This document shows positions 25,301 to 63,628 of a stretch of DNA of 64,000 bases, piece after piece. This stretch comes from a virus. Position 1 is the stretch's first letter. Each line of letters opens with the position of its first letter. A model generated the notes under the pieces. The model worked only from the letters and a program-made list of their open reading frames with translations. It had not been told where the DNA came from and searched no databases. The translations under genes were made by a program, and so were the position numbers. The stretch spans positions 102,409-166,408 of the IMG/VR virus record IMGVR_UViG_3300042924_004713; one strand, written 5' to 3'.

Positions 25301-28300
25301 TCCAATACAGAAATTCCTGCGCCATCTGACGCCAGTTCAAGGTCAAACCATTTTCCACACTGTCAAAGATCATGCCTTGAGATTCTAACAGTGCACCGTA
25401 GCTGAACAAGAAGTCACATACAGCATTGTCATTGCTAAAGGTATAGCCATAAGGAATCTGTGTTACGATGTCACTGTAGGTAGTGGGTACTGCAACGGTT
25501 TTTCCGCCTGCTGACAGAGTAATTTTTGGTCCAGCTACCTTGCTTACTAGAATCTCAAAGTAGGGATTCACAACATCGTAACCAAAAACTTGATATCCAT
25601 CCTCAACTCTTTGAATCATTACACTGCTGTAATTCACAGCGGCAAATGGTACATTTTTGTACAAGAACAGTTCGTAACTTTCATCAGGCAGTAGCAAACT
25701 GGTGTTTAGACTGTTAGGACTGGGCTTTTCAAGAAACACCTTGATGTAGGCTTTGTCACTGAATGATGCCATGCGATATGCTAATTGTACATCAATGTTG
25801 TCAAGGTTAGCTGCCAAGGCAGTGGCTGTGTTGCTGTTACCTAGATGTGTGTTGTAATCCACAATCCAGTTGATGTAACTGGCCTTGCTGATGCCATCGC
25901 CATATATTTCAAGATTGCTAGGACTTAATCTGCTACGGTCTTGATATAGGTATTGTCCAAGATCAAGATTGAACTTGTATAGATCTCTATCAACAAACAA
26001 AGAGAAAAATTCAGCAGGACGAGTTAGCGCCAGCAAACGCATGATAGCAAAAGGATAGCTGCTGCTGGTACGCCATACGTATTCAACTGGTCCAACGTCG
26101 CCCATGCGCCAACTGCGTTGGAAAGTCTGTTTATCATACAAGCCAACCACAGAATCTAGTGGTGGTAACAGATTACCCTGTGCATCAACTGGAAGAACAT
26201 CTAACAGTCCTGGGCGCACATATTTGGGTATCACATAGAAACCATTTGGATCAGCAACCAGACCCTGCGACAGATCTTCCCATAACACCAAGTTTTCACT
26301 GGTGTAAGGAGCTGCACCATATCTGCTTTCCCACCAACTAGGTTGTTCGCTGAATCCCAACATCTCCCATGGGGCTTGATGTGGCCTGATTGTATCATAA
26401 AAATATAGGTACAATCCGCGCCATGCACCAACAGGTAGGGCTTGATTGTTTAATCTGTTTTGGCTGCGACTGTAGTTGTAACTAAAATCGTTGTTGACAT
26501 CATAGGCCTGAATAGTATAATCAATCTTGTTGGTGCCTACCCATGTCAAAAAGTCTACACTAAGGATGTCATTTACTTCGGTTAATGACCAATCTGTGGT
26601 TCTAAATTGACCTGGTACTATGTCATTTTCACGAATAGGAATCGCCGAGCGAATTTTTAAATTGTTGTAGATTCGTGTTTCAAAATCCAATAAAACTTGG
26701 TCGCGAATGTCGTCAAAGGCCACAGTGATACTGCCATCATGCCCAACAATCACAGGTGTAGGTTGTGAATAGGTTGTATCAACAAAGATTCTAGGTTGGT
26801 ATGCAGGATACAGTCCCATTTTAGTTGGGGTGTTGGGCACAAAGTTACCTACTGTGCTAGCATATTCTTGAATTTCAATGGTATCGCCTACCTGTAGAGG
26901 GTAGGTAATTGTGACCTGAGGTGTGTCCGCGCTAACTGTGTAATCTTTGTTAATGGTCAATAGATGTCCATTAACGTATACTAACAGAGCCAGATAGTTG
27001 CTCTGCGTGAAGTCATACACTCTCAAGGTGTTAAAAGTGGTTTGACTGATTGGTGTAAAGGTATAGGTGTTAGAGTCATATACCGAACGCGATGGCAGCA
27101 TATCGCTCCAGTAAAACGGATTTTGCTGTGTGCGTCCAAGATTGATATCGTTAACTGCGGCCACCAAGATTTCTGGAGCAGTGGCGTCGCCCCAATCTCG
27201 TGATGCAACTATGTCTAATAGTTGAGTTTTAAACTTGATGTATTCTGCGCTGTTCCATTGTAGTGCTCTAAAGAAATCATAGTTTGGATCTCGCATGAAG
27301 TAACCAGCCATGGTCAATGGCGCACTTTGCTGCAAGATATTCAAACCATAACGAGCAATGTAACCAAGATCGCGACTGTTGTTTGAGCCGTTGATACTGC
27401 CCTGTAGGTCAATTAGATTTTCGCAGATACTTTCATAGTGACTGCGCATGGTACCAAGAGTTACTTGGCTGACTTCTGCATTGTTAGCGTTGTTCTGTAA
27501 ATTGATTGGTACTTGGAAAAACGCATTGTTACTGATCTGATCACTCAATACCAACACAATGATTTTTTCACCCACAGGGATGTTGTCATTAAGATTGATT
27601 GTGGTTGTGTTGCTGGTAGTGGTGTACGAATAAGTTCCTGGATCCTGGAACTGTGAACCAATATAGATCTTGATCACAGGATAAGGATTAGGCAATGCAG
27701 AATTAAGTACTACCTCATTGACTTTGACATCAAGTAATAATGGTTGTGACTGATATGTGAATTCAAACTGTTGATATGTTTCACTTGGATAAGGTGCAGT
27801 GGCCCAACCAATTTGATCAGTAAAATCGGTGCGAGAGGTGTAACGACGTGCAAAACCAATGCCCACAGACTCGGTGATACTTTGACGGTCTCTTACATAA
27901 GAAAATGTATCAGTGTAATAGTTATTGATGAAAACAATATCACCAACGTTGTTAATGGTCACATACTGCACAGGAAAGCCCAGCACTGAATCATTAGCAC
28001 CGCTGCCAATTCCATAGGAGAAAAGCTTGGTTCCGTTAAACGTGCTACTTCCATAACGTTCTAGATTGCCAATACTTACATCGTCAACAAAAATATCAAA
28101 CTGTGGTGGATTGTTTACGCTGACTTTTTGTTGGCTTAGAATCCATTGTGCACCATCAAAGGTAAAACTTTGGCCTTTTCTTCCAACCCCGTTTAAACAT
28201 ACCACAACATCGTTGGGTAAAATAGCGCCATCTGAATCAGGAACCAGATTAATAATAGGCTGCTTGATCACAGGTGCCACTGTGTCTGGCGTAATTAATT

Positions 28301-30593
28301 CAACCTTGTAAATTTTATTTCTTACGTTTAGATCAGTATCAGCAGCAAAGATAATTCTACTGCCGTTGACCAAATTATATCCATCAACAATAAAGCCCAC
28401 AGGCGTGCCATTTACATCACTGAATGCGTCGCGAGTGGTAAAGTCAATTACGTCAATGGCTTTTTTGCCAAACGTACCAAAGTTGTACAACTTGAGTCCG
28501 GACTTGAACTCAATGATGGGTCTACGAGCTCTGGTCTGCAGATCTAGCAAAGCCGAGTTGTTGTTGAATTCAGCAGAAGTTTCTAACACCTGTCTATGGA
28601 ACCAACGATTACTTCTACTCCATGCATTTCTGTCTGGACTTGCACGATTGATAGTGATGTAGTCCGGAGTCAACGGCTGATTATTACTAACGTCATAGTT
28701 GCCAATATCATATGGTGTGCTGTCAAACGACACACTCACACTTTCTGTGTAAGGTTCAGGCGTGACCATGTCTACCACTGGAACCAATACAATGCTTTCT
28801 CCAACACCTTCTACATAATAAGTGTTATCGCGATACTCAACAGGAGTTACATCTCCTCGGAAAGTCACAGCAAGTCCGTTGCTAAAAGTCACGCCATTGG
28901 GACTGGTATACTGTTTTGCACCAATGATATTGTTGACATTCAATACACTGGCATCTTCAACATCAATCAAACGTATTTCGCCAACCAATTGTGGATCCAC
29001 ACTGTCTTGATAGTAAAGAGTATCCAGCACTGCTGTGAGCAAAGGAATCTGTTCAAAATAGCCATCGTCGCTGCGATACCATTGAGTGCTGCTGTATTGA
29101 CTGCCTTCAAGAATTCTAAATTTCTGTAATTCAGCCACGGCTCGAGCCGACGTCACATTAAGATATTGACGTCCAGTTTGATCAGTTATGTATTGAATCT
29201 GCCAAATACTGTAGCGTTCATCAAAGTCAATGATTTCTTCAACTTCGCTGAAAGGACGTTCATTGTAACCTGGCTGCTCGTCATCCTCAGGTGTGGGACT
29301 ATAAAAACTAGCTCTTAGCCAGCCGCCGGCGATAGAATCATTGATAAAAGGAAACTGCTCTTGAATACTAGGAATGTTGAATATGATAAATTTGCCATCA
29401 AGATCAGTGATGCCATCAATACCATCAGGATATCTTGCAAAGAAATCATCAACATAAGCGTGATTGATATCACGATAAGGAATATCACTGACCAAGTTGA
29501 CTGGATCAAGTTCGGTCAACGTATAATAAAAATTCTGTGCGCTCTTAAGTGGCACATTGAAAGTCACTGTGCCTAGGTCTTCACCATTGTTGATTACGCC
29601 CAAAACATCACGGCTACTGATGTTGGGTGTGGTAGGCATTTTGCCGTCAATACCAGGTTGTGCTTGAATATAAAACTGAGGACCAGTGCCAGGCACACCA
29701 TCAATGATTTTGAATTTGCCAGCCATCTGAGAGCTGTTTTCAGCATTGTAGTATAGTGTGTCAGGCGCACTTTGAGGCACTGTGAACACAATAGTACCTT
29801 CACTGGCGCCGTTGTTGGTAATACCTTGACTATAGATATTCACCAAGCCTGTGCTAGGCAAGGTTTTAATCCAAAATGGAAAACTGCCTTCAATACTCAA
29901 TGTGAAGATGTAGGTGTTGCCTCTGATCAAGGTCAGCTCAGGATTGATAACATAGTCAATCACATAGGCTCGGTTACCTTGATTGGTCACACGTAGATTT
30001 ACAGTGCTGGTTTGATTCTGCGCAACTTGAAACTGATAGCTACCGCCTCTGATCAAAGTTAGAGTTGGGTTTTGTCCTAGCTGTCCGCTGAAACTATAGA
30101 AATTATTGTTACGAGAAACTTCAACTGTGTTTGTGATAGCTGCGTTACCACCGGTGACATCTACCTCTAGTGGACCAGTTGGTAACCAGTAATATTCACT
30201 GTAGTTGACCAGCTTGTCATAGTCAACCAGGGGATCAAATGCATAGTACTGACTTTTGTACAGTCGGTCACTGCGATCAGTACTAGCACCTGCAAGGTCC
30301 AGCGCATCTTGAATACCTGGGTAGGTAATTGCGTCTATAACTGTGTCAGTGTCGGGAACCTTGATAGTGATAGCTGGTTCAAGTTGATAGTTAACACGGT
30401 CCTTGGTAGGTTCAACCACATACCTAGCAGCAGTTGGATTGATGCCTGGTCCAATTTTTCTACCAATAAAACCCTGTGTTTTTTTCAGTGCAGGTTCCTG
30501 AATCAGCTGATCCAGTGTTGCTCCAAGAAACTGTCTATTGGTCTTGGTCTGAAAAATTTCCGGTAAAAAGTCAACCGAACGAACTTGAGCCAT
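16344..30593 (-). CDS. Giant (4749-aa) baseplate wedge/tail-associated structural protein
   Basis: Uninterrupted 14.25-kb ORF after the gp6-like gene; FG-GAP-like repeats (FGSSLAMSGDERWLYVGAP) and two WQPNxT(Y/F)..GQ.V modules. Confidence 0.8.
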   Translation of the reverse strand: MAQVRSVDFLPEIFQTKTNRQFLGATLDQLIQEPALKKTQGFIGRKIGPGINPTAARYVVEPTKDRVNYQLEPAITIKVPDTDTVIDAITYPGIQDALDLAGASTDRSDRLYKSQYYAFDPLVDYDKLVNYSEYYWLPTGPLEVDVTGGNAAITNTVEVSRNNNFYSFSGQLGQNPTLTLIRGGSYQFQVAQNQTSTVNLRVTNQGNRAYVIDYVINPELTLIRGNTYIFTLSIEGSFPFWIKTLPSTGLVNIYSQGITNNGASEGTIVFTVPQSAPDTLYYNAENSSQMAGKFKIIDGVPGTGPQFYIQAQPGIDGKMPTTPNISSRDVLGVINNGEDLGTVTFNVPLKSAQNFYYTLTELDPVNLVSDIPYRDINHAYVDDFFARYPDGIDGITDLDGKFIIFNIPSIQEQFPFINDSIAGGWLRASFYSPTPEDDEQPGYNERPFSEVEEIIDFDERYSIWQIQYITDQTGRQYLNVTSARAVAELQKFRILEGSQYSSTQWYRSDDGYFEQIPLLTAVLDTLYYQDSVDPQLVGEIRLIDVEDASVLNVNNIIGAKQYTSPNGVTFSNGLAVTFRGDVTPVEYRDNTYYVEGVGESIVLVPVVDMVTPEPYTESVSVSFDSTPYDIGNYDVSNNQPLTPDYITINRASPDRNAWSRSNRWFHRQVLETSAEFNNNSALLDLQTRARRPIIEFKSGLKLYNFGTFGKKAIDVIDFTTRDAFSDVNGTPVGFIVDGYNLVNGSRIIFAADTDLNVRNKIYKVELITPDTVAPVIKQPIINLVPDSDGAILPNDVVVCLNGVGRKGQSFTFDGAQWILSQQKVSVNNPPQFDIFVDDVSIGNLERYGSSTFNGTKLFSYGIGSGANDSVLGFPVQYVTINNVGDIVFINNYYTDTFSYVRDRQSITESVGIGFARRYTSRTDFTDQIGWATAPYPSETYQQFEFTYQSQPLLLDVKVNEVVLNSALPNPYPVIKIYIGSQFQDPGTYSYTTTSNTTTINLNDNIPVGEKIIVLVLSDQISNNAFFQVPINLQNNANNAEVSQVTLGTMRSHYESICENLIDLQGSINGSNNSRDLGYIARYGLNILQQSAPLTMAGYFMRDPNYDFFRALQWNSAEYIKFKTQLLDIVASRDWGDATAPEILVAAVNDINLGRTQQNPFYWSDMLPSRSVYDSNTYTFTPISQTTFNTLRVYDFTQSNYLALLVYVNGHLLTINKDYTVSADTPQVTITYPLQVGDTIEIQEYASTVGNFVPNTPTKMGLYPAYQPRIFVDTTYSQPTPVIVGHDGSITVAFDDIRDQVLLDFETRIYNNLKIRSAIPIRENDIVPGQFRTTDWSLTEVNDILSVDFLTWVGTNKIDYTIQAYDVNNDFSYNYSRSQNRLNNQALPVGAWRGLYLYFYDTIRPHQAPWEMLGFSEQPSWWESRYGAAPYTSENLVLWEDLSQGLVADPNGFYVIPKYVRPGLLDVLPVDAQGNLLPPLDSVVGLYDKQTFQRSWRMGDVGPVEYVWRTSSSYPFAIMRLLALTRPAEFFSLFVDRDLYKFNLDLGQYLYQDRSRLSPSNLEIYGDGISKASYINWIVDYNTHLGNSNTATALAANLDNIDVQLAYRMASFSDKAYIKVFLEKPSPNSLNTSLLLPDESYELFLYKNVPFAAVNYSSVMIQRVEDGYQVFGYDVVNPYFEILVSKVAGPKITLSAGGKTVAVPTTYSDIVTQIPYGYTFSNDNAVCDFLFSYGALLESQGMIFDSVENGLTLNWRQMAQEFLYWSGQGWGPGSVINLNPASTSLMVSRPGAIVDSIIERDTTTSIQDQNKRKILINDLIVERIDNDFKITSLTEQTINYADLRFTAYEHIMVFKNASVFGDLIYDPITAARQGRMQLIAGTSTDWNGQLDARGFILNQDNIVDWQPNVTYTKGQIVKFKNQYYSALTIVQPKQEFDYVDWTLSDYNQIKKGLLPNLANKADLIQQTYNTVGANLERDQDLLAYGLIGFRPREYMANLNLDDVSQVNVYKQFLSTKGTKFSVDLFGTASFDKEVADYSIFENWAVLKGIYGAQANRRFFDIRINQALLTSNPSTVQVIVPFEQSFADQTVQIGDLWRSSWNVTSPEILPVAVTPRRDLDLPTAGYVNLDDVDITEFEIIDPTNINANIDSVGVGTTVWIAKVNSHDWNVYRCSAVPGNIQSITDNFNGTSLAGFSQQHNLSVNDIIVIKSFSTDVNGAYRVLEVPSLTSIVIEFAIPNDQIELLGQGVCLVLETIRVDQPSDIANLPYINNVTAKSLVWVDNNGFDRWQVLERTEPFVYNQRLEPLRSVNSYWASAVAQTENNTLMLASAPGASTGIVFQYGVNPAGTLQDGGSISLNAAQVSNFGATMTVGNNLWGAVGAPNSLSDVGYTAIINYNGDFEAFTVSQLLLGLDQPGPAKFGSSLAMSGDERWLYVGAPELNRVYAYGQVPVPTQSISYPTTGTTRRFSTVTIQYDNVQQLEVVVSGLPQRLNIDYSATGSFIEFFTAPSKNQTVVISRRQSVQLDFQEYYNITASTTTGLGTSALWDVEVVRGLYSVDLLNAGTNYSIGEVLTIKGTQIGGSSPAEDCVITVTDVSFAGAILDYTVSGGRLSVTDRFAVRESLFTATNINSVRVEVNGTVQRPKIDYEWLKSDSSLPDSTLNDYDLVFVNSPAIGATIMAYAPTYYQLCQVLTRPGLASDAKFGASVATSHDGRQLAIGCPNENINGTFRAGSVYYFNRDVESRIITTATTAPTTFTTAAPLTLPVSVKVNGEFLNNTAQYGTLRNNTYTVNYSVSPEAPISVTVNQPLNIGDVVEIEANFFRPVHKLESDIPQERAEFGHSVQFVLSDSQLAVGSPYDSQASQVPQAGSVKMFVNQPLTYGTITSTVANPVLTAGHTLQINYQEIAVPAAPNNTVAGLANAIVNSGIPNVTAAVTSSGLLVIDVINEAATTPYNRLSVLPGAIGTAYGDLGFNSFEFSQTLSSPYPTDGANFGWSLTSAQEDVIIGAPGGTAHLNVTFDNGTTFFDSGSTTFYTDLHQSGVVYEFDYLPSVNPSSLNPGLFNFGQQLYSPESTTAERFGESVSQAWAYTLVGSPNATVSTTTNNGAMSAFINADRTPSWVAKREQVPAVDIYSINNALLYDRLQSPRTQFLDFFNPQQGKVLGAARQNIDYVSTNDPAFYNTGLTSVQGNSWGKNHVGQIWWDTSSVRYLDVTQDELAYASRKWGQIFPGSRVDIYQWVESTVPPANYTGPGTPLNFIDYTVTTALTQNNVFVSNYYFWVRGIDTLPTTGNKTLSTVAIAQYLANPIASGIPFMAPLNSSTVALYNCSSYIKAFDTIIHIEFDQTPNTDNIHTEFQLLAQGKADAFLTPPLYRKLQDSFAGEDQSGLSVPDPSLTVAEKYGVQFRPRQSMFVDRFRALQNYIDRTNSVLALYPIAESRNLTLLNSEEPVPLQQTTVGNILVTNWNQEVANLEELSWQNILIVPVGYRYLVLSDSNNNGRWTIYETIFENNIYSLRLIRVQNYRTNEYWDYINWYAPGFNPDTTPAIEVPSYAALIAQQVAVGTVALVTANSQGKFEVYQLLDSGWNRVGLQDGTIKISPAIYDYQLGRLGFDGEVFDAQYFDQAPQAETRKIIQGINQELFIDELLIERNNLLILMFNYILTEQLTPDWLMKTSLIDVQHNIRELLPYQTYRRDNQDFVLDYLSEVKPYHVQIREFNLKYAGQDLFNGDIADFDIPAYYNASLQEYISPILTDVENSPSDAASNNIIWQTQPYDQWFDNYKLELQELILVTGGTGYTTAPTVTISGVAVRNATAIAVINSAGQVNSLVVTDPGEGYLTTPSVTITGGNGTGAKAIAILNNGLVRSIKTTLKYDRYQYESNIEEWQPNITFDNGQLVRFGGRIWEADSPDSTGVNTAEFIPEDWILVPVGELSGVDRTMGYYVALADQPGRELPLLITGTDYPGVQVKGLNFNQDTGFDRGPFDMTPWDNLDFDASGLPTYSETLIDSVYESEFIDQYLGTGVNDVVVDGGAFVDTYSSHAPEELVPGSEFDTMDFRVYVRPGSDWNGLGHGFDILSLRATYNSADSTISWAQIAQYQTHEIYPAAIRVSNAGPNGSSLLSSDLAPSQYTVDWVNQTITVLSGVNDDDLLVINIYEVGGGNQLLRANYNGADIGTQLEIPVKFSDIYELVIFVNGTRLLPTTDYTFESIAPTITRINFSVILTSLDAVNLTVMGFQTPQYSWSLPTVQTFTIAELSPSSTAQLTYTLTNSLQGSNPNNAYVTVNGFRARPSQGIEWYGDGSSAEFLFPERGGYSQGLVADNEVNVYVNDVPQVLGSDFTVVPWDGFSRRSIILSYVPNIGDRVLICVNTRADYIISGNQITFRPSGSFGVFPGDVVSVTTYNDTSQQNIVQIVWVGPITKGAIASEGFDFLPFDSGSVNNEPGSFDFSEGITVQENDFDLRRPVQESERMIVSLNGRLLFPGLDYTVVSDVESGDPTTYLELLSGPIAVTDVVVATLYTNQIVPNAMAFRIFQDMRGVQLTYRITDNTTTRLLSDLSVDDDIIYVENVLACGEPNIPANYLGVVTINGERIAFRYRDLENNTLSGLLRGTAGTAIANHFAGDLVYNIGRENLLSGGGYQDYVVQTSVKANGSQVQFTAPNINLTGIDSTEWLEALIVSVGGIIQPPTAYQFLNANPATVRFYDAPAAGRLVTLAVKRAQSWYQPGAFEPSDGVPLQLQNTSAAKFLRNDE

Positions 30594-33500
30594 TAAATTA
30601 CTCCACTACCAGGCGCTGTACGAAGATTCGTACTGGTCAACGCATCGATTACCTCGACGTCTGCTACAGTAGCAGCGTTGACAAAGATTTCGTTTGGTGC
30701 TGAACGTATTTCGTATAGGTCACCAAAGGCTTTTTGTGGGTTCACAGGAACCAGCACCACTGAACTTACCAAGGTGCCAATTTCTTTGTGAATGTAAGCT
30801 GACAATTCAGAAAAGTAAAAGGTGTCGCCAAAGTTCCATTTGTCAATTGTAAAATAATCATTTAGACTTTGTACCACTGCATTTTTGATCTCACTCACAC
30901 TGGCAGTGGAGTTAGCGGCCTTGATCACTTTTATGGTTGCTCTTAGGTCAGTTGTGGCCTTGTTACCAAACAATGGCTTGAATGTCACACTGTTCAAGAT
31001 AACATTGTCGCTCAACATCTTGTAGTCTTGCAGTCGCTGAAACTGAGTGGTCAATTCATTGATTGTGGGCTGAGCAGGTTCGGGCACAGTACCAGTACTG
31101 TCCTTGATATAATTCTGATATGCAATGTAATAGTCCTGAGTCACAACATACACATCAATGATGTTGGTTATAGAAGGATCAATTCTATTGCTCAGCAGAC
31201 TGTTATGACGATACTGATAGTAAAGATTCTGTCGGCCAATTCGTGCCAAGAATTCATTGCTCTGCACCAAGGTGCGAGTGCCAGTTACGTCAATGACCAG
31301 TCTCCAAAATTCTTTTTCTAGATAAGTGTAAAACACTTGCCCGTCAAGATACTGTGACTTGTAGGTTTCTACTTCAGCGTAGGTGCCATACTGATAGTTC
31401 ACTCTGCCTTCTTCTACCAGCAGGTATCGTTGTAGATCGTTAAAGTCCACTGTGGCTTCTAAAAACACAAGATTGCCTGCTTGAGTTGGTGCAGGATCAG
31501 GTCCTACAATCTCTTCAAAGAAATCAGGATTGTCGGCAGATCCATCTTGATCGCTGTCAGTAAAACTAACTATCACTTGGAAATCATTAACAAAGCCATC
31601 ACTTTCTTCTGGCTGTCCAATAATCTGCATTTCAACATCAGACGGCAGTGGAGAGTTACTGTCAGGCAAACTGTTAGATTTCAAGACCTTGATAAAATCT
31701 TTGATCACTGTACCAAGTCTGCTGTCGTAGATTGCTGATCCAGATTCAAAAAAGAATCTTGTTTGCAACACCGACGCAAAAAAGTATGATAATTCGCGAG
31801 TACTTACATTGTACTGTGTGCCATCTGTGGTAAATCTTACCAGCCAACTTGAGTCAAGATTAGCGCCTGATGTATTTTGTTGATTAACCAAACTAAATGC
31901 ACTGTCTGCATCAAGATTGCTTTGCCCGATCAAATACCATTCGCCTGTAAGGTTGTTGAAACCAAGACCAAAGTTGCGATAAAGTCGAATCTGTTCAATT
32001 ACATTCACAACCAGCGCAGTGGGCAGATCAGTGATGAAAATCGGAATCACTTGTGTGGCCACTGCACCAGTTGGTACAAATGTGTTAAAGGCCACAGGGC
32101 CAGTGCCATCGTCAAGATTTCCTCGCCCTTGGTTGGTACCATCAAGTACCACCGCAGTCACAGTGGTCCAGATCACAGTTTTGTCTGTGTCAACTGTAGG
32201 CAGACCAGATATAAGTCTGTTGTATTGATTGAAATAAAATCCATCTGGGGCTTCAAATTTTACCAACGAAGCAGGCACAATGTATTTGGCGTTGCTGCTG
32301 CTGAATGAGCCAATTGACACAGGGTCATTGTTGTTGTCAACAAAAAAACCTGTACACTGGTTAGTCAACGCAGTGCTTTGATTCCAAGACAATGACAGTG
32401 CAGACAGCGACGGTCTAATAAAGTTTGCATAGTAAAACTGTAAAACTCCAGGCGTTTTAAGTCCTGGTTGTACTTTGTTTGTGATAGCGTCCGCAATGTC
32501 GTTGACTGTGAACCAAGAAAACTGGAATGTAGGCAAGGTGTTTTCTTTGTAAAGACCACCGTCACTGCCAAACACATTAGTACTAGCATACTTGTTGGTG
32601 TTGTCTACTAGTTCTAGGTATCGTGAAGTACCAATTGCACTACGATTTACAGCCTTGCTCTTGATAATGCTATTGTACAAGGTAAACGGAAACAGGTTGT
32701 AGTCTTCCCCGTTGACCATGCGGTTTTGAGTGTAGTATCTAGCAGGAGCTCGTTGTTTGATTTCGTCCAGTAGTTCGCGGCTTTGAGAATTACTCACAGG
32801 CGCAGTAAGGCCCACTGTGAAAGTGATTGTTTCAATGCGTCCAGTGCGACTCACGTAGTTAATAGGCAATGCAATCGTGGCCATTTCACTGGGATTGATC
32901 ACATATTCAAGTCCGTTGGATGAACGTACATAGGCTCTGAATGTACCAACTGGTATGGCTGAAAACACACCATCACCAAAGGTCAATGAAATCTGATCGT
33001 TGACTCTGCTGACTGTGGAATAGATCTTGCGTAGTGTGCCTACATCTTGTTCGGCAGCAGCGGTGTAAACTGATTCTACATACTGCCACTCTTCAGACAC
33101 GCTGCCAATATCATCAAGTTGATACAGCCAACGATCTTCGTTATTGATACCTTCGATGTTGACATTGACCACACGATTGGTCACACGCTCTGGCAAGTTG
33201 AAATCAGCTGATAATAGATTTCCTTGCTTGAAGTAAAAGAAAAATCCTGAATTTTGTGAACCAAATCCCAATTGATCATTACGGTACAGCATGTTAAATG
33301 CACCGTTGGGGCGTGGGCTAGGTTCGTATAGATATTCACGTCCTGCGCTGGTCACACTCACTGCTTCAAATGGCATGTTGATGCCATCAACAGTGGCAGT
33401 GAAAGGAATCACTGGCAGATAACCTGGGGTGATGTTTAGTGTGTATTCTTGAGTGTCAATGCCTAGCAGATTTTGATCAGCACCAGGACGACCAAAACGC

Positions 33501-47976: not shown

Positions 47977-48492
47977 ATGACCAGTCCACAAAAAGTCAAG
48001 GGCAACGCCTGGGAAAACACAGTTGCAAAGCATCTTACACAGATCTATGGAGAAACCTTTATACGTGTGCCTCATTCTGGTGCCTACATAGGTGGTGCTA
48101 ATCAGCATCGCAAACAGGTGTTACACGAAGGGCAGATACGCAGCTTCAAAGGCGACATCATACCTGGTGAAAGTTTTCCTAGATTTAACTGCGAATGCAA
48201 AAGCTACAAAGACTTTCCGTTTCATCAGTTGTTTCAAGGCGCTTGCAAAACTCTAGACACCTGGATACAACAGTGCATGGACGTGGCCGACGATGGTGAC
48301 TTTAATATACTTTGCATGAAGTTCAATCGCAAAGGAACTTTTGTGGCAGTACAAGCACAGCCCAATACCTCACAACTGATATTCACAAGAAATTTCAATT
48401 ACACCAGTGGATTAAACGGTCATTGGATGATCATGGACTATGATCTCTTCTGGGAGATCAATGCAGACAGTGTGAAAGAACTCTGCGCATGA
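47977..48492 (+). CDS. Holliday junction resolvase-like PD-(D/E)xK nuclease
   Basis: KGNAWE...GDI...ECKSYK. Confidence 0.75.
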   Translation: MTSPQKVKGNAWENTVAKHLTQIYGETFIRVPHSGAYIGGANQHRKQVLHEGQIRSFKGDIIPGESFPRFNCECKSYKDFPFHQLFQGACKTLDTWIQQCMDVADDGDFNILCMKFNRKGTFVAVQAQPNTSQLIFTRNFNYTSGLNGHWMIMDYDLFWEINADSVKELCA

Positions 48493-49523
48493 TCAAAGGA
48501 CGCTTAACCACTTATGTAGGAGATGTCAATGCTTATCTAAGAGCAGCAGCACGTCAAACTCATCCTCTGGCTTTTTTGGTCAGCAATGCCAATTGGCAGC
48601 AGTTTATAGACAGTGACCATGATGATGTTGCTGTTTATACATCGCTAGGAGACCTAGCTGTGGATAATTTTTGTGCTCTGTTGGATCTGTCAGATGTGAT
48701 TGAATATTGTCCGCCACCAAATCATCAGTGGAGCGATCGCAAAATTATCAATGAACTAGATCCCTTTGACAGTATTCGTGGGCTTACTGAATATCTTGTA
48801 CAGAGACACATTGATCGCAAACAACTTGGAAACCTAGAAAGTGTCAACCAACCACAAGAACTGTTGCCCTTGGTTGACACTCGCAAGACTTCTGGACCTC
48901 AACTGTGGACCGCAGGGTGCAGCATCACTGCTGGCATTGGTGTTGATTCTACTCAAACCTGGAGTCATCATCTATCTAGTCTGCTGAACATACCATGCTC
49001 AACGCTGGCCGAACTTGGCGCCAGCAACACATGGCAAGCTGATCAAATACTTAGATCGGACATACGCTGGCGCGACACAGTGGTCTGGGGTATTACCGGC
49101 CTGTATAGGCAATGGATAATCCAAAATGGTGAGATGCGACACCTTAACATGCATAGTCATGTTGAGGATCCCAATCTAGAAATCAACTGGCCACTGCGTG
49201 CTTTGGCCAGCGACACCACACTGTACGCATCAATGCACTGTATGAAAGCAGTAGCCAATTTTTGTGACAAAATTGGTGCTAGATTAGTGATTTTCAACGC
49301 AAACTTCTCAGACGCATATATAACAACACTCAGGCAAATACCACATTTCTACTACTATCAACATCCAATTCGTATAGGCAAAGACAGGCAAATACGTCAA
49401 CACTGGCTTGATTTAGGCACAGACGACTCGCATCCAGGCCCACTACAGCATCAAGCATTCGCAAATTTTTGTTACTCAATTTTAAAACCACAAACAGACT
49501 CTGTGCTAAGTGTTGTGACTTAG
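48489..49523 (+). CDS. Protein with a C-terminal SGNH hydrolase-like domain
   Basis: GCSITAGIG, GASN and DDSHPGP. Confidence 0.6.
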   Translation: MIKGRLTTYVGDVNAYLRAAARQTHPLAFLVSNANWQQFIDSDHDDVAVYTSLGDLAVDNFCALLDLSDVIEYCPPPNHQWSDRKIINELDPFDSIRGLTEYLVQRHIDRKQLGNLESVNQPQELLPLVDTRKTSGPQLWTAGCSITAGIGVDSTQTWSHHLSSLLNIPCSTLAELGASNTWQADQILRSDIRWRDTVVWGITGLYRQWIIQNGEMRHLNMHSHVEDPNLEINWPLRALASDTTLYASMHCMKAVANFCDKIGARLVIFNANFSDAYITTLRQIPHFYYYQHPIRIGKDRQIRQHWLDLGTDDSHPGPLQHQAFANFCYSILKPQTDSVLSVVT

Positions 49524-49886
49524 CCCCATTGAGCTAGCCGAGGTAAGGCTCGTTGCCAGCAGATCTTGGGTGTCAAAGAATAGGCTAACTTAGGCTAAAT
49601 GATCGCGGCTATGTGAACAAGATACAACCGCGGCGCAAGGGACTTTGCTTGTATGGGGTCGCCTGCGTTCCGTTGCGAGTCAAGGCTAGAGTAGGAGGTA
49701 CAGCGCAACCGCCTCCGTGTGGAAACACAATCTCTTTATACAAGTGATCGTTCGAACTCAGATGATGACAACTTGCCCGGTAAACGGGCAAGTATGACCA
49801 AAAAATCTAGATGATAACTTGATTCTCGCTCTGCTCGAACACATTGATGAGCGCAAGCGAATCAATAGATCTACGCAGTAGATCTT
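49505..49886 (+). ncRNA. Candidate large structured non-coding RNA or DNA element (strand uncertain)
   Basis: ~350-nt ORF-free gap in a dense genome, with at least six stems, a GGAA tetraloop and a long-range pairing. Confidence 0.55.
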
Positions 49887-50911
49887 CCAAGTACATGATG
49901 ATTGGGCTCAAGTAACTGATGTAGTTTTTGTGTGTTATCTGGAAAATGTTCAAGTTGCCAGTTCTTGACGTTGAGTTGATGTTTGTGCATCAATTGATGT
50001 AGAATAATCACTTCCTGAGTAAAGCTAAGGTCTCGCAGTGGATAGTACCAGTTATTGACCACAGCATCAACAATGTGATCAAGTTCGTATTGAAACTTCA
50101 AGAGTTGGTAGTTGATCTGCTGCCATTTTTGATACACCTGCTGCCATGATTCCCACCGTGATGAATCTGTTGTGATATCAAGATCTTTGCACAGACGTGA
50201 GAGCACCTGTTGTCCGTGATACCAAAATTCCTGACAGTTGATCCAATGATGTGGGAGTGTGAAGTCCAGGTGTTCGTGTCCTAGTCTTGATGCTGTCCAC
50301 TGTAGATTCAGTGCCAGTAGTTCTCTACGATCCCAAACAGTTGTGGCCGAACTCAAGGTGCTGTTGAAAAACACTTCATTCATGTGTAAAAAGGTATTGG
50401 CCACTGGTGTTTCTTCAAACATCACTGCGTGCTGCGCACGATCTAGAGTGCCAGCGTGATACACTTGATTGTGATGATCTGTGGCCACAAACACACAGTC
50501 ACAGCCCATGTAATCACACCAGCGCCAGACCTGAGCATATTCTTGGTCGCAAAGATCAATCAGACGAGTCCATTCTTGATTGTCATGCAATACTGAACTA
50601 GTGTGACCAAGTTCCTGTGCCATGGTGTCCACAGCAGGTCCCACAGGATAGATCACATGAAAGTCTGCGGGCACATTGATTAGTTTGTCCAACACATGTC
50701 GTGTGTTGTGTATGCCAGACACATGATTGCGTGTGTGTCCATGCGCATTTAGTCTAGTTAATGGATTTACAGTGATTGGTTGCCAGCCCTGTTGCCAATG
50801 ATACACTTGATCATGGCCAGCTAGCCAGTGTATGCTCCAATCCATGAAACTGATGCCAATGTTGTGTGTGCCAGTGAGGCAAACAATGCGTGTCATAGTT
50901 GATCTGGCCAA
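49871..50911 (-). CDS. Hypothetical protein (start may be ATG 50896)
   Basis: 346-aa ORF, last gene of the minus-strand operon; ends in TAG. Confidence 0.7.
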   Translation of the reverse strand: MARSTMTRIVCLTGTHNIGISFMDWSIHWLAGHDQVYHWQQGWQPITVNPLTRLNAHGHTRNHVSGIHNTRHVLDKLINVPADFHVIYPVGPAVDTMAQELGHTSSVLHDNQEWTRLIDLCDQEYAQVWRWCDYMGCDCVFVATDHHNQVYHAGTLDRAQHAVMFEETPVANTFLHMNEVFFNSTLSSATTVWDRRELLALNLQWTASRLGHEHLDFTLPHHWINCQEFWYHGQQVLSRLCKDLDITTDSSRWESWQQVYQKWQQINYQLLKFQYELDHIVDAVVNNWYYPLRDLSFTQEVIILHQLMHKHQLNVKNWQLEHFPDNTQKLHQLLEPNHHVLGRSTA

Positions 50912-52373: not shown

Positions 52374-53228
52374 TTAAGAGGCTGGCGCGAAAAAATTTGC
52401 TTGATCAAGTGTAAATGGTTGTGTGTACTGATTTTCACAATTGTTGCATTTAACCTGTAGTGGTTTAAGTTCGCTGTCCATTCGCAGCGTAACCACGTGA
52501 TCACGAATGCGGTTAAACAACTTACGATCGCAGTTTTTCAAAAAATCAGCAATGTGTTCGTGCTCTGTGACCATGGCATTTGATGTTTTAATCAAGCTGA
52601 TAGTTGCTGTTAGTGTGGCCACAGTCATTTCAGTGACCTTGCGCAGAGCATCAGCTAACATTTTGATTTTTTCTTCTTCTGGAAGTTCTGCATTTGGCAA
52701 CATCTGTAGCAGTCTTTGGTCATTAAACTGCATGGTATTGTTTTCGTGCATCTGCTGATAGTTCAAAGGCACAAAGTGTATTTCCAGATCACCATTGGAA
52801 ATACAACTATCATAGTCTGGCATTTTGAAACCGTCAAGCACTTGGCGTAGATCCAGTGCATACGTATGGCTTTCTTCACACTTGGGACAGCGGCTCTCTA
52901 TTTCTAGTTCATGTCCGTAGCTGGCAATGCGTATAGCTGTGAGTATGGCATCTATATCTACGGCCGGAGTGCCCCAGGCATTTCGTATGTTTGGCACACA
53001 GCTTTGAATCACACTCACAACTGCCTGTCCGTTAAACAGTGCATCAGGTGTGCGGTAGGTTATTTCATCAATCGCGGTCATAGGCAACACTGGCAACTCA
53101 CCGTTTTCAGTCATGGTTAAGGTGCCTGGCGGCCAGAATTTACCTTGGCTAGGTAAACGCAGGTAGATGGCTGGCTGGCGGAAAAACTGCCGTAAAGGAT
53201 TAGCGGTTGGGGTCATTTTTACATCCAT
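52374..53228 (-). CDS. Baseplate hub/tail assembly chaperone, gp26-like
   Basis: LPSQG, PMTAIDEI, D.DAIL.AIR.ASYG, two CxxC motifs, terminal NFF. Confidence 0.75.
   Translation of the reverse strand: MDVKMTPTANPLRQFFRQPAIYLRLPSQGKFWPPGTLTMTENGELPVLPMTAIDEITYRTPDALFNGQAVVSVIQSCVPNIRNAWGTPAVDIDAILTAIRIASYGHELEIESRCPKCEESHTYALDLRQVLDGFKMPDYDSCISNGDLEIHFVPLNYQQMHENNTMQFNDQRLLQMLPNAELPEEEKIKMLADALRKVTEMTVATLTATISLIKTSNAMVTEHEHIADFLKNCDRKLFNRIRDHVVTLRMDSELKPLQVKCNNCENQYTQPFTLDQANFFAPAS
52389..52398 (-). promoter_or_regulatory. Putative -1 ribosomal frameshift site A AAT TTT TTC
   Basis: Two overlapping in-frame X XXY YYZ heptamers; the -1 frame is open into 52159-52347. Confidence 0.65.
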
Positions 53229-61792: not shown

Positions 61793-62359
61793 TTATTCTT
61801 CGTCATCGTCTTGATAATCGTCTTCGTCTATCCATTTTTGACTTGGATCATCGTAGGCCTGATAGTAACGTTCATTGGCCTGCATGATTCTAAATCCATC
61901 TTTATATTTCAGCGCAGCAAAGGTTGCTTCTTCCTTTTTTAACAAATCGCAAACCACAAAGCTAGTGCCACAACCACCGCTGATGTTTTTGAATGGCGAG
62001 TGTTTGTATTCATTATGCTGTAATGCTTTGTGAAATGCTCCACCGTATGTAAAAATTATTCTTGTGATACCAAGCTTTTGATTTCGCAATCTAATTTTGT
62101 CAATCAAGGTCAAGACTGAGATTTCAGCTTCGTTGGCATCGTTGATGGCCAACAAACACTCTTTGAATTTGATACTGCCCTTGGTATGGTAATTGTCCGG
62201 AGTCTCTTTGGTACTCCATGGGATGGAAGCAGTGACGTGGTCTACGTAAAAAGTTTCACCGTGTGTTTTTACGACCCACATGGGGATGGTACTATCTTCT
62301 AGATGTTTCTTGTTGAAGTGAAACACTAGATCCTTGCATGCGTATTCAATCTATGACAT
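61793..62359 (-). CDS. Hypothetical protein; probable true start ATG 62359, with an in-frame TAG at codon 3 (ORF track start is GTG 62326)
   Basis: AAAGGAAAATAAA-ATG TCA TAG ATT GAA TAC GCA TGC AAG GAT CTA GTG TTT CAC, continuous with the 177-aa ORF. Confidence 0.65.
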
Positions 62360-62360
62360 T

Positions 62361-62546
62361 TTATTTTCCTTTTGTTTTAAATTTACTGCACATTAGTTCA
62401 AAATCATGTTGCCTGCTTTGAACTTGTCCGTAACTTGCTTTAGGATTACGTTCTCTATACTCTGCTTTTTGTTGTTCTATGCACTCATCGTACTTGTTAG
62501 AACAACCTGCTGCTATCAAAGCAAAAACCATTAAAATGTAGCGCAT
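62361..62546 (-). CDS. Small lipoprotein
   Basis: MRY plus hydrophobic stretch plus lipobox-like AAG-C; RBS AGGA. Confidence 0.7.
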   Translation of the reverse strand: MRYILMVFALIAAGCSNKYDECIEQQKAEYRERNPKASYGQVQSRQHDFELMCSKFKTKGK

Positions 62547-62561
62547 AACAGTTTCCTAATG

Positions 62562-62665
62562 GGTAGTTATTTTTGTGTCAGGAAACTACCAAACCCCGTG
62601 AGCGCAGCCCATCCCGTTTTCGCGTCAGCGGAGGCGGAATATGGTTACGGGTCCGCCGATGATTC
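62562..62665 (-). ncRNA. Candidate structured RNA immediately 3' of the tRNA
   Basis: GC-rich non-coding segment with GGCGGA/TCCGCC, CCCGT/ACGGG and GGTAGTT/AACTACC pairings. Confidence 0.45.
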
Positions 62666-62739
62666 TGGTGCGCCGTATGGGAATCGAACCCATTCATTGG
62701 AGGTTTAGAATCTCCTTGCCGTCCACCGGCTCACAGCGC
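62666..62739 (-). tRNA. tRNA with CUA anticodon (amber suppressor-type), CCA encoded
   Basis: GCGCTGT GA GCCG GTGGA CGGC AA GGAGA TT-CTA-AA CCTCC AATGA ATGGG TTCGATT CCCAT ACGGCGC A CCA; full cloverleaf. Confidence 0.8.
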
Positions 62740-62747
62740 ATAACGTA

Positions 62748-62776
62748 ATTATGCCAAAATTAAACTAGTAGGTCAA
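62748..62776 (-). promoter_or_regulatory. Sigma70 promoter of the tRNA cassette
   Basis: TTGACC-17 nt-CATAAT with an extended TG; predicted +1 within a couple of nucleotides of the tRNA 5' end. Confidence 0.7.
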
Positions 62777-62793
62777 TTAATTTGGTAAACCAC

Positions 62794-62881
62794 TAAATAC
62801 TATTAACGCACTCTGCGTTTTATGCGGCAACCACCGCGTAGTGGCTAGAACCCACATCGGACTTCTTTAAGGAGAAAACAA
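62794..62881 (+). promoter_or_regulatory. Late promoter (TAAATA) followed by a three-hairpin 5' leader and a strong RBS
   Basis: Hairpins at 62805-19, 62821-40 and 62841-55; AAGGAG before ATG 62882. Confidence 0.55.
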
Positions 62882-63628
62882 ATGGGGCGTCCTCTCAAAA
62901 TACAAAAATATTCTACTAATTCTGGTATTGGTGCACCTGGTGCAGCAGTAGGCATTGATGTTGGTTTTCCAAACTTTGGCTCACTGACAGATCCAGAGTA
63001 TAATGTCAACCCAACAACTCTAAGTGCAAACGATTATCTTGGCGTGGTTGGCGGACTTCGTACCACTGCCACATCAGCTACTAATCCTGTGGTCAAGTGT
63101 ATTGTAAACATCGCCAACAGCTACACAGGTGTAGATGATGGTGTTATCCTGCGTCAAAAAGGTGCTCACAAATTTCTAGTGGCCACGAACACAGCTATTG
63201 ACCCTGCCAACGCAGTGGTGGGTGTCAGTGTGCGCATTGCTAGCCTTGGGGACACCAATTGGGTAGCTATGGGTGCACCAGTGGGTGCCGCAGTAGGCAC
63301 TATTTTCTTAGTTACAGCAGCCGCAGGCGCTGGTACCACAGGCACCTGTCAAGAAGTCGGTGTGTGCGTTTTAGACAATGATGCAACTCCTCCTGGCGGC
63401 AGCATGGCCATTGGCTTCTCAGTAGGAGATTCAACAATTACCTACATCAGCAAGCTAACCAACAAGTGGCTGTTGGATTGGACTGGAGGTAACGACTACG
63501 GTTACTCCAGCGTGGTAAATGATGTGCGTTATGTATCAAACTTCTTCACTGACGAAGGCACTGTGATCAAGAGTGGTACTGCAAATACCACAGTGATACC
63601 AGGGCAAGTTGAGAAGTGGACTAGCTAA
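62882..63628 (+). CDS. Probable virion structural protein
   Basis: Late promoter motif, strong RBS, Gly/Ala/Thr/Val-rich composition. Confidence 0.6.
   Translation: MGRPLKIQKYSTNSGIGAPGAAVGIDVGFPNFGSLTDPEYNVNPTTLSANDYLGVVGGLRTTATSATNPVVKCIVNIANSYTGVDDGVILRQKGAHKFLVATNTAIDPANAVVGVSVRIASLGDTNWVAMGAPVGAAVGTIFLVTAAAGAGTTGTCQEVGVCVLDNDATPPGGSMAIGFSVGDSTITYISKLTNKWLLDWTGGNDYGYSSVVNDVRYVSNFFTDEGTVIKSGTANTTVIPGQVEKWTS

Follow-up and report, generated by a model that had tools for sequence, protein, structure and literature searches.

A 64,000-nucleotide stretch of viral DNA (IMG/VR record IMGVR_UViG_3300042924_004713, positions 102,409 to 166,408; hereafter the window) was analyzed, and comparison with related loci indicates that positions 49496-49886 on its plus strand encode a conserved structured RNA and are not a pair of terminators. 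We propose that this segment is the gene for an undescribed family of ~390-500-nt structured non-coding RNAs (ncRNAs) in T4-like jumbo phages, which would range from uncultured aquatic relatives to, more distantly, cultured Rak2-like phages. The RNA would act in trans as an abundant, stable molecule. Through its two identical short elements, R1 and R2, it would bind a lineage-specific partner, either as two copies or as a dimer; this partner may be a protein of the phage or of the host, or else a nucleic acid of complementary sequence. The RNA would thereby work as a ribonucleoprotein scaffold or decoy. To this explanation as a whole, from the new family to the trans-acting scaffold or decoy with twin elements, we assign an even chance of being correct.

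A preliminary description of the same DNA had placed a structured element at 49505-49886; its coordinates were right, and most of the stems it listed proved to be real and conserved. Its suggestion of a large phage ncRNA is supported by homologues that covary, from over 40 distinct viral contigs, by a fold with several pseudoknots, and by the lack of a conserved reading frame, of terminators and of an Rfam match. Large RNAs with complex folds are rare in bacteria and phages, and to our knowledge every such class so far (RNase P, transfer-messenger RNA (tmRNA), group I and II introns, OLE, GOLLD and ROOL) is biochemically unusual. The class described here comprises at least 42 distinct aquatic representatives, with distant relatives in 62 cultured jumbo-phage records.

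A family of viral loci

The first related contig (L001) was reached via the 346-amino-acid (aa) protein encoded next to the RNA. The RNA element was far better conserved in this contig than the flanking genes, whose products shared ~69-70% identity, and the substitutions within the element were compensatory. The 344-aa protein encoded on the other side recovered no locus when used as a probe of viral contigs. An exact 27-mer taken from the invariant block of the RNA retrieved nine loci, and a degenerate 21-base pattern (TAAATGATNNNGGCTNTGTGA) retrieved 59 loci on viral contigs, nearly all of which were confirmed by nhmmer and which contained 42 distinct sequences. In 185,579 prokaryote genomes the same pattern matched 55 times, roughly as often as chance predicts; 54 of these matches were chance matches and one was true, on a 3.3-kb contig binned with a Fischerella metagenome-assembled genome. 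Since only this one of the 55 prokaryote matches was true, and since it lies on so short a contig, the family is considered viral. BLASTN of the window region and of two aquatic homologues against isolated phages gave no match, and the relatives in cultured phages were reached through covariance models only.

With covariance model R1, the window scored 152.3 bits (E=6.5e-29), the top score, tied with L004, the window itself belonging to the set from which the model was built. The window contains all motifs of the family in the common order, namely the 5' CUCUG leader with hairpin H1, UAAAUGAU with the P5 interior GGCUCUGUGAAAAAGAUACAACC, a pseudoknot formed by the P6 loop, the H-type pseudoknot CCGUUG...GGUAC...CAACCGCCUCC, R1, a hairpin and R2, the GA hairpin, and a terminal hairpin with a C-GNA-G loop.

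Selection on RNA pairing

The substitution pattern among the homologues shows that purifying selection acts on the element as an RNA of the plus strand. Two alignments were analyzed, a core alignment of 24 sequences (A4) and a full-length alignment of 28 sequences (A6). Standard pairs made up 84.4% of the cells in A4, compared to 70.5% after shuffling and 39-53% in controls with slid partners, and covariation was 0.399 against 0.179 in the shuffles, none of 500 of which reached the observed value. In A6, the totals of which include three wrongly bracketed helices (3, 5 and 6), 75.2% of the cells were paired (shuffled: 63.2%), covariation was 0.325 (shuffled: 0.152), and 380 cells were changed on both sides versus 164 in the shuffles. 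Near-invariant G-U pairs were detected in A6 (columns 352-364, UG in 28 of 28 sequences; columns 349-367, GU in 20), and because these would be A-C mismatches on the other strand, they identify the plus strand as the RNA strand.

Folding of the single sequence was slightly better than that of shuffled sequences (z -2.25 on the plus and -2.61 on the minus strand) and did not separate the strands. As this signal is weak and strand-blind, the evidence for an RNA is the comparative one. The modest z of about -2.3, similar on both strands, and the position between convergent genes would suit chance pairings, or mere terminators of two convergent operons, with no element present at all. Opposed to this are the many covarying homologues in other genomic contexts, and a search of 49200-50100 on both strands for terminator-like sites (a GC-rich hairpin followed by a U-run) returned zero. 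Convergent intrinsic terminators, which the preliminary description had named as what might account for the stems, were rejected on the latter result, and the reading without an element is already refuted and keeps virtually no probability.

No conserved reading frame was found among the 28 homologues, the longest stop-free stretches being 38-95 codons in differing frames and strands, and insertions or deletions of 1-2 nt occur within conserved parts of the RNA. A small protein-coding gene was rejected on both grounds.

Architecture of the RNA

In the aligned homologues, some twelve helices build up a compact fold that contains GNRA-capped hairpins and two supported pseudoknots. As judged from the extent of conservation relative to L001, L004 and 40 other distinct homologues, the whole structured RNA measures ~390 nt (49496-49886, plus strand, as are all parts given below). 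It overlaps the last 28 nt of a 344-aa open reading frame (ORF) and is antisense to the last 16 nt of the 346-aa ORF; the flanking coding sequence diverges faster than the RNA element.

The RNA begins with the conserved leader AGACUCUGU (49496-49504), its probable, unmapped 5' end. The leader has the form (A/G)AC(N)CUGU in the aquatic group and AA(C/U)UCUG in Rak2-like copies, where it lies ~10-45 nt past TGnTATAAT promoters. It is followed by hairpin H1 (gcuaagu/acuuagc, 49505-49524), which is compensated in homologues as gcugagu/acucagc, accac/guggu or gguagga/uccuacc. In P2 (49525-49570), CCCA at 49525-49528 pairs with UGGG at 49567-49570; 80.6% of its cells are paired and all four pairs change on both sides, with the variants CGCA/UGCG, ACCA/UGGU and GUCC/GGAC. 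P2 encloses hairpin P3 (49537-49556) and a 36-nt block that is invariant among closer relatives. The next feature (49583-49603) consists of hairpin P4 (49583-49596; ~80% paired), which carries the conserved loop AACUUA, and of the sequence UAAAUGAU, invariant in 28 of 28 sequences. Just 5' of H1 in one aquatic subgroup (L038, L024 and L019), the sequence UUAGGCUAAACUUAGGCUA repeats the P4 region of the same RNA (AGGCUAACUUUAGGCUA); a CAUUUAGGC motif upstream of several members may be connected with this internal duplication.

Stem P5 (49604-49632) surrounds the near-invariant interior GGCUCUGUGAAAAAGAUACAACC and is 90-92% paired, with three of five pairs changing on both sides. P6 (49634-49667) is a variable hairpin in which nine of nine pairs change on both sides; it is 57-77% paired in a region where the MAFFT alignment is poor. 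Its loop (49647-49656) forms the 5' strand of the first pseudoknot, PK-A, by pairing with 49736-49745. A pseudoknot at the RNA level had been suggested for this place in the preliminary description and is borne out by compensatory changes (GUAUGGGG/CUUUAUAC in the window, UAUGGUUG/CAACCAUA in L003), with 73-85% of the cells paired and eight of ten pairs changing on both sides.

A second pseudoknot, of the H type (49672-49716), was newly found. It consists of S1 (49672-49677 with 49704-49709), a strand of which pairs inside the loop of S2, and S2 (49694-49699 with 49711-49716). Pairing reaches 99% (99.3% for S1 and 99.4% for S2 in A6), with compensatory changes that include changes on both sides in four of the six S1 pairs, and the motif is recognizable in the Rak2-like copies. 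Of the cgcaa/ttgcg stem described previously, the ttgcg strand (49673-49677) does pair, its partner being CGCAA at 49704-49708 and not CGCAA at 49634-49638. The junction helix J (49688-49691 with 49732-49735) is 89-94% paired (AGAG/CUCU, GGGA/UCUC, AAGG/CCUU, GAGG/CCUC); between S2 and its 3' strand stands hairpin Hn (49718-49729), which usually has a GNRA loop, and the 3' strand of J (49732-49735) is directly followed by that of PK-A (49736-49745).

In the 3' part, the R1 element CUC-AGAUGAU-GAC (49757-49769, core 49760-49766) and the R2 element UCU-AGAUGAU-AAC (49806-49818, core 49809-49815) share the same core and co-vary. Between them lies Hu (49771-49798), a GC-rich 9-bp hairpin (49771-49793) followed by UAUGAC, in which five of nine pairs change on both sides and which was found in every homologue, Rak2-like copies included. 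The GA hairpin UUGAU-GA-GC-GCAA-GC-GA-AUCAA (49844-49865) contains tandem G-A/A-G pairs and a GNRA-type loop; its stem covaries, and the GA...GA core is kept in the aquatic and the Rak2-like group. This short hairpin is the conserved form of what had been drawn as a long ttgatt..cgct/agcg.aatcaa stem, which is not conserved. The RNA ends in a terminal hairpin (49867-49885) with a C-GNA-G loop and without a U-tract, 95.5% paired and with six of eight pairs changing on both sides. The other stems read from the single sequence, namely gctaagt/acttagc (49505-49524), cgcgg/ccgcg (49604-49608 with 49628-49632), ggagg/cctcc (49694-49699 with 49711-49716), the GNRA-capped hairpin at 49718-49729, the 9-bp hairpin at 49771-49793 and agatctac/gtagatct (49867-49885), all covary in the homologues.

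The twin elements R1 and R2

R1 and R2 are identical 7-nt cores on either side of Hu, AGAUGAU in the window. Nine variants of the 7-mer were found in 24 distinct aquatic sequences (AGAUGAU, GGAUGAU, GGAUGAA, AGAUGAA, GGAUAAU, GUCGGAA, A/UAAUCAA, UGAUCGA/G and AAAUGAA), and the distance between the two elements varied from 48 to 61 nt. R1 and R2 mismatched at only six of 168 positions, compared to a mean of 51 and a minimum of 29 in 10,000 shuffles, a test that ignores relatedness, although the concerted changes recur in separate branches. All five copies in Pectobacterium phage CBB carry the core CGUCAG, and other Rak2-like phages carry CGUCAA.

Within the RNA, only chance-level matches of 6-9 bp at inconsistent positions were detected as pairing partners for R1 and R2. 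Nor was their complement enriched in the window or in the CBB genome: ATCATCT occurs nine times in the window, with 11.2 expected, and ACTGACGA four times on the CBB forward strand, with six for the control. Since the twins co-vary without an internal complement, one external partner, or two copies of it, appears to read both elements. Twin 7-mers that are identical and yet change between lineages are an unusual signature, which points to a specific partner.

Identical sequences bordering a conserved hairpin segment could also mark processing sites. The RNA would then be a ribozyme or the substrate of an endoribonuclease, cut at R1 and R2 to free a ~50-nt hairpin small RNA that might be circularized. 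A compact, pseudoknot-rich fold with GNRA loops is typical of ribozymes, and a 3' end without a U-tract terminator would imply that the ends come from processing. However, no known self-cleaving ribozyme model matches, the spacing of R1 and R2 is variable, and seven co-varying bases are not needed for cleavage unless they are read by pairing, for which the RNA holds no partner; this leaves a self-processing RNA or precursor a small chance.

Several further ideas were rejected. Translational bypass of the gene-60 type was dropped as no ORF enters R1 and stop codons follow both sites, and a CsrA sponge as GGA is absent from most of the 7-mer variants. A C/D-box RNA, a T-box and a mimic of a type I-E repeat of clustered regularly interspaced short palindromic repeats (CRISPR) were excluded on sequence grounds. 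A template for rolling-circle reverse transcription was dismissed because the R1-R2 period varies between 48 and 61 nt; a reverse transcriptase was not looked for.

Copies in cultured Rak2-like phages

Covariance model R1, a model of the core, matched an unannotated 674-bp gap of phage CBB (E=0.0015). The gap holds the H-type pseudoknot motif, a GC-rich hairpin between two CGUCAGU sequences, the GA hairpin and the C-GNA-G terminal hairpin. BLASTN of this gap detected 62 Rak2-like phage records with three to five places each, most of them unannotated; among them are GAP32, 121Q and PBECO4 as well as Yersinia, Erwinia, Serratia, Salmonella, Klebsiella and Xanthomonas phages. Covariance model R2, which was built from aquatic sequences alone (3' core, R1, Hu and R2), detected six of nine Rak2-like copies with E-values of 1.7e-4 to 0.03 (40 kb, filters off), and its best whole-genome matches in five isolates fell on the copies defined by BLAST. 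Both groups have the motifs in the same order, as judged by eye, and the aquatic and Rak2-like RNAs are probably distant relatives.

In CBB (NC_041878.1), five copies are located at ~32.4, 94.3, 174.5, 258.2 and 336.3 kb, all on the plus strand and in unannotated gaps of 661-786 bp (32301-32989, 94229-94889, 174345-175130, 258047-258784 and 336275-336948). An extended -10 box, TGnTATAAT, was present upstream in eight of the eight copies read (five from CBB and one each from 121Q, Munch and Hallingskeid). The copy at 174 kb shows synteny with the window, in the order gp46-like gene, endonuclease VII, RNA and structural genes, and Erwinia phage Hallingskeid has a copy between endonuclease VII and the baseplate hub. 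Variable neighbours, together with three to five copies per genome in unannotated gaps of Rak2-like phages, argue for a separately transcribed RNA acting in trans. The 'empty' gaps of 650-790 nt in Rak2-like annotations would thus be RNA genes; several related records annotate short 'hypothetical protein' ORFs across the RNA, which are probably spurious. As the Escherichia coli phages 121Q and PBECO4 carry the unannotated RNA in three to five copies behind strong promoters, the family can be tested at the bench.

A strong hairpin with a U-run was observed between the TGnTATAAT box and the 5' leader in CBB copies 1 and 2 (L081 and L083) and in Salmonella phage Munch (L086), where it is annotated as a terminator. 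Promoter and hairpin thus follow each other in another order than in 121Q. The hairpin could stabilize the 5' end or terminate the upstream gene.

The arrangement in CBB would also suit copies that each mark a replication origin. The ColE1 RNA II and the T4 oriF and oriG transcripts form persistent RNA-DNA hybrids, and the promoter-driven structured transcript of each copy would do the same, R1 and R2 being iteron-like DNA sites for a phage initiator protein in a new type of origin. All five copies are on the same strand with a strong promoter in front of each, at even distances of 52, 62, 78, 80 and 84 kb around a unique genome of 355.9 kb (PMC5259590); for five random points on the CBB circle, the smallest gap reaches 52 kb or more with p ~0.005, a post-hoc value from one genome lineage. 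Besides this spacing, an origin would explain the 7-mer shared by the CBB copies and an ancestral copy in a recombination/replication module, as the syntenic copy adjoins such genes (gp46/47, endonuclease VII), and short repeats that are shared by all copies of a genome and differ between lineages behave like iterons. On the other hand, it is clearly the pairing of the RNA that is under selection, G-U pairs and tertiary-type motifs among it, whereas T4-type origin transcripts need no such structure. Moreover, no turn in GC skew was found at 49.5 kb within the window, and an AT-rich unwinding element was not identified. We give the origin or primer RNA a small though appreciable chance.

Several observations weigh against the proposed trans-acting RNA family. 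Its existence as a discrete transcript and its 5' and 3' ends are predictions from sequence comparison. No sigma-70-like promoter was found upstream of the RNA in the window, and because the stop codon of the upstream ORF lies inside H1, the RNA there could be the 3' end of a messenger RNA. Two proposed long-range helices, LR1 (49530-49533 with 49757-49760) and LR2 (49561-49566 with 49803-49808), barely exceeded shuffles (63.9% versus 61.3% paired) and are unproven. The partner of R1 and R2 is hypothetical. The link to the Rak2-like phages is based on modest, roughly calibrated covariance-model E-values and on motif order by eye, and nhmmer with the aquatic profile gave nothing significant on the Rak2-like copies. 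Finally, a terminator-like hairpin and its U-run separate R1 from Hu in three of the five CBB copies and in that of Hallingskeid, and four of the five CBB copies are followed by genes on the same strand, which would suit a leader acting in cis.

A cis-regulatory element would be a long structured 3' untranslated region that stabilizes or terminates the upstream operon in the aquatic phages and a leader controlling read-through in the Rak2-like ones. Apart from the CBB hairpins and downstream genes, it would account for the upstream stop codon that abuts or overlaps the 5' end of the RNA in most aquatic loci. However, the genes upstream and downstream differ widely between loci and copies, and the same R1/R2 sequence is found in all copies of a genome whatever the neighbours. 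A convergent gene follows the RNA in the window and in most aquatic loci, which leaves nothing downstream to control, and ~390 nt with two pseudoknots far exceed what stabilization needs. The chance of a role in cis is accordingly slim.

Gene neighbourhood and adjacent nucleases

The window is part of a 166-kb virus record that is estimated to be 48% complete. It encodes T4-type proteins, among them a gp55-like late sigma factor, gp47/gp46 (SbcCD-like), the portal gp20, the prohead protease, the major capsid protein gp23 and a gp26-like baseplate hub; the capsid protein is closest to those of PA5oct and the Rak2-like jumbo phages (~67% identity). The RNA locus forms the junction of two convergent gene strings, a genome position that is conserved in the family. 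On the plus strand, gp47, gp46 and a radical-SAM protein are followed by a PDDEXK_15 nuclease (47977-48492) and the 344-aa ORF (48489-49523). The minus-strand string comprises the 346-aa ORF (49871-50911), DUF6614, two small ORFs and the baseplate hub (52374-53228). Neither the 344-aa nor the 346-aa ORF could be assigned to a family by a Pfam or PHROG match. Both were found in only part of the loci of the RNA family and have the appearance of insertions, specific to some lineages, into the stretch that runs from the nuclease gene past the RNA to the DUF6614 gene. In one locus (L052), a homologue of the 346-aa ORF lies on the opposite side of the RNA.

In the aquatic relatives, the right neighbour is the convergent gp26-like hub gene, either directly or past a few inserted genes. 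The left neighbour in nearly all aquatic loci is a PDDEXK_15 nuclease or a SegE-like GIY-YIG nuclease (142-163 aa, E 1e-32 to 2e-39; two longer ones have NUMOD3 motifs), the stop codon of which typically abuts the 5' end of the RNA. The RNA might therefore be thought to complex with the nuclease as a cofactor or guide, with R1 and R2 setting the targets, since a small nuclease gene from one of two unrelated families lies directly upstream and the two elements vary like guide segments. Against this, four of the five CBB copies lie away from nucleases and the syntenic one is near endonuclease VII on the other strand, one R1/R2 sequence is common to all five, and neither the window nor CBB is enriched in the complement of R1/R2. 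In the window lineage, moreover, the inserted 344-aa ORF separates the nuclease gene from the RNA. The adjacency is explained more simply by the common tendency of homing endonucleases to settle next to conserved genes, for which the free-standing seg and mob genes of T4 are a precedent. Because two unrelated families share the slot, the window has an inserted ORF and the Rak2-like copies have no such neighbours, the nucleases are probably homing endonucleases of the free-standing kind that took up a place next to a target of high conservation, and a functional partnership with the RNA is highly improbable.

Comparison with known RNAs

Searches of the window region, 16 divergent aquatic loci and two CBB loci with Rfam 15 gave no family match at the gathering score or at E<=10, and GOLLD, ROOL, ARRPOF, OLE, raiA and all other families of this release were thereby rejected. 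The preliminary description had seen no resemblance to transfer RNA (tRNA) or tmRNA and no RNase P or group I intron core, and the searches agreed in each case. ARAGORN found nothing in the region and no tmRNA, standard or permuted, in the window, and the Rfam tmRNA models had no match at E<=10. The only RNase P-like signal was a 7.9-bit RNase MRP match on the minus strand (E=7.3), which is noise. Rfam Intron_gpI did not match, the flanking ORFs are convergent and complete, and the helix order differs from that of group I introns in that a pseudoknot strand lies in a hairpin loop. No description of the RNA was found in the literature searched; the CBB genome paper and a comparative survey of jumbo phages do not mention it. 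It may be among the ~10,000 unnamed candidates of the 2023 virus-wide catalogue (PMC10690425).

The RNA resembles GOLLD and ROOL in being large, pseudoknotted, of no known function, frequent in phages and detected by comparative analysis only. It differs from them in sequence and structure, in size (390-500 nt compared to ~580-800 nt) and in that it is not tRNA-associated here; the twin co-varying 7-mers and the multi-copy state in Rak2-like genomes further set it apart. Unannotated intergenic transcripts of 236-619 nt, the long ncRNAs ncRNA001-004, have been defined by RNA-seq in PA5oct, and two of them each account for 1-5% of phage reads (PMC7318152). PA5oct is likewise a jumbo phage, with a major capsid protein ~67% identical to that of the window. 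Neither covariance model detected these transcripts, and no convincing motif order was seen in them by eye; a match of covariance model R1 in PA5oct (201887-202028) was a false positive inside a tail protein gene.

ColE1 RNA II and the T4 oriF and oriG transcripts are comparable as transcripts from their own promoters that could prime replication; the RNA lies beside recombination/replication genes in the window, and several copies of it can be dispersed round a large genome. However, neither an RNase H site nor an unwinding element or a skew signal was identified and there is no sequence relationship, and the T4 origin transcripts are unstructured. With HEARO and the omega-RNAs of IscB and TnpB it shares the position of a large structured RNA directly beside a small nuclease gene in most aquatic loci. 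In contrast to these, the neighbour is of the GIY-YIG or PD-(D/E)xK and not of the RuvC type, Rfam HEARO did not match, no transposon ends were found, and the RNA also occurs away from nucleases. The phi29 prohead RNA (pRNA), which is transcribed early, from a promoter of that class, is comparable as a phage-specific structured RNA with short recognition sequences that co-vary among related phages. The pRNA loops are complementary and pair between molecules, whereas the elements here are identical, and size, fold and phage group differ.

Other features of the window

The ORF-free gap at the RNA measures 347 nt (49524-49870). It had been described as the largest in the window, which is strictly incorrect, as 62327-62881 is longer, but the latter contains a tRNA and an Rfam motif. 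This tRNA (62666-62739, minus strand) has a CUA anticodon, which would read the amber stop codon, and is labelled tRNA-Pyl by ARAGORN. It lies 65 nt from a freshwater-2 RNA motif (RF02980, 77.8 bits; 62804-62884, plus strand), which ends where an ORF (62882-63628) begins and is also present in the related locus L055. The long ORFs are intact under code 11, and genome-wide recoding of TAG is thus not evident. In the structural region on the minus strand (16344-30593), a single ORF of 4749 aa is followed by ORFs of 1136 and 1028 aa.

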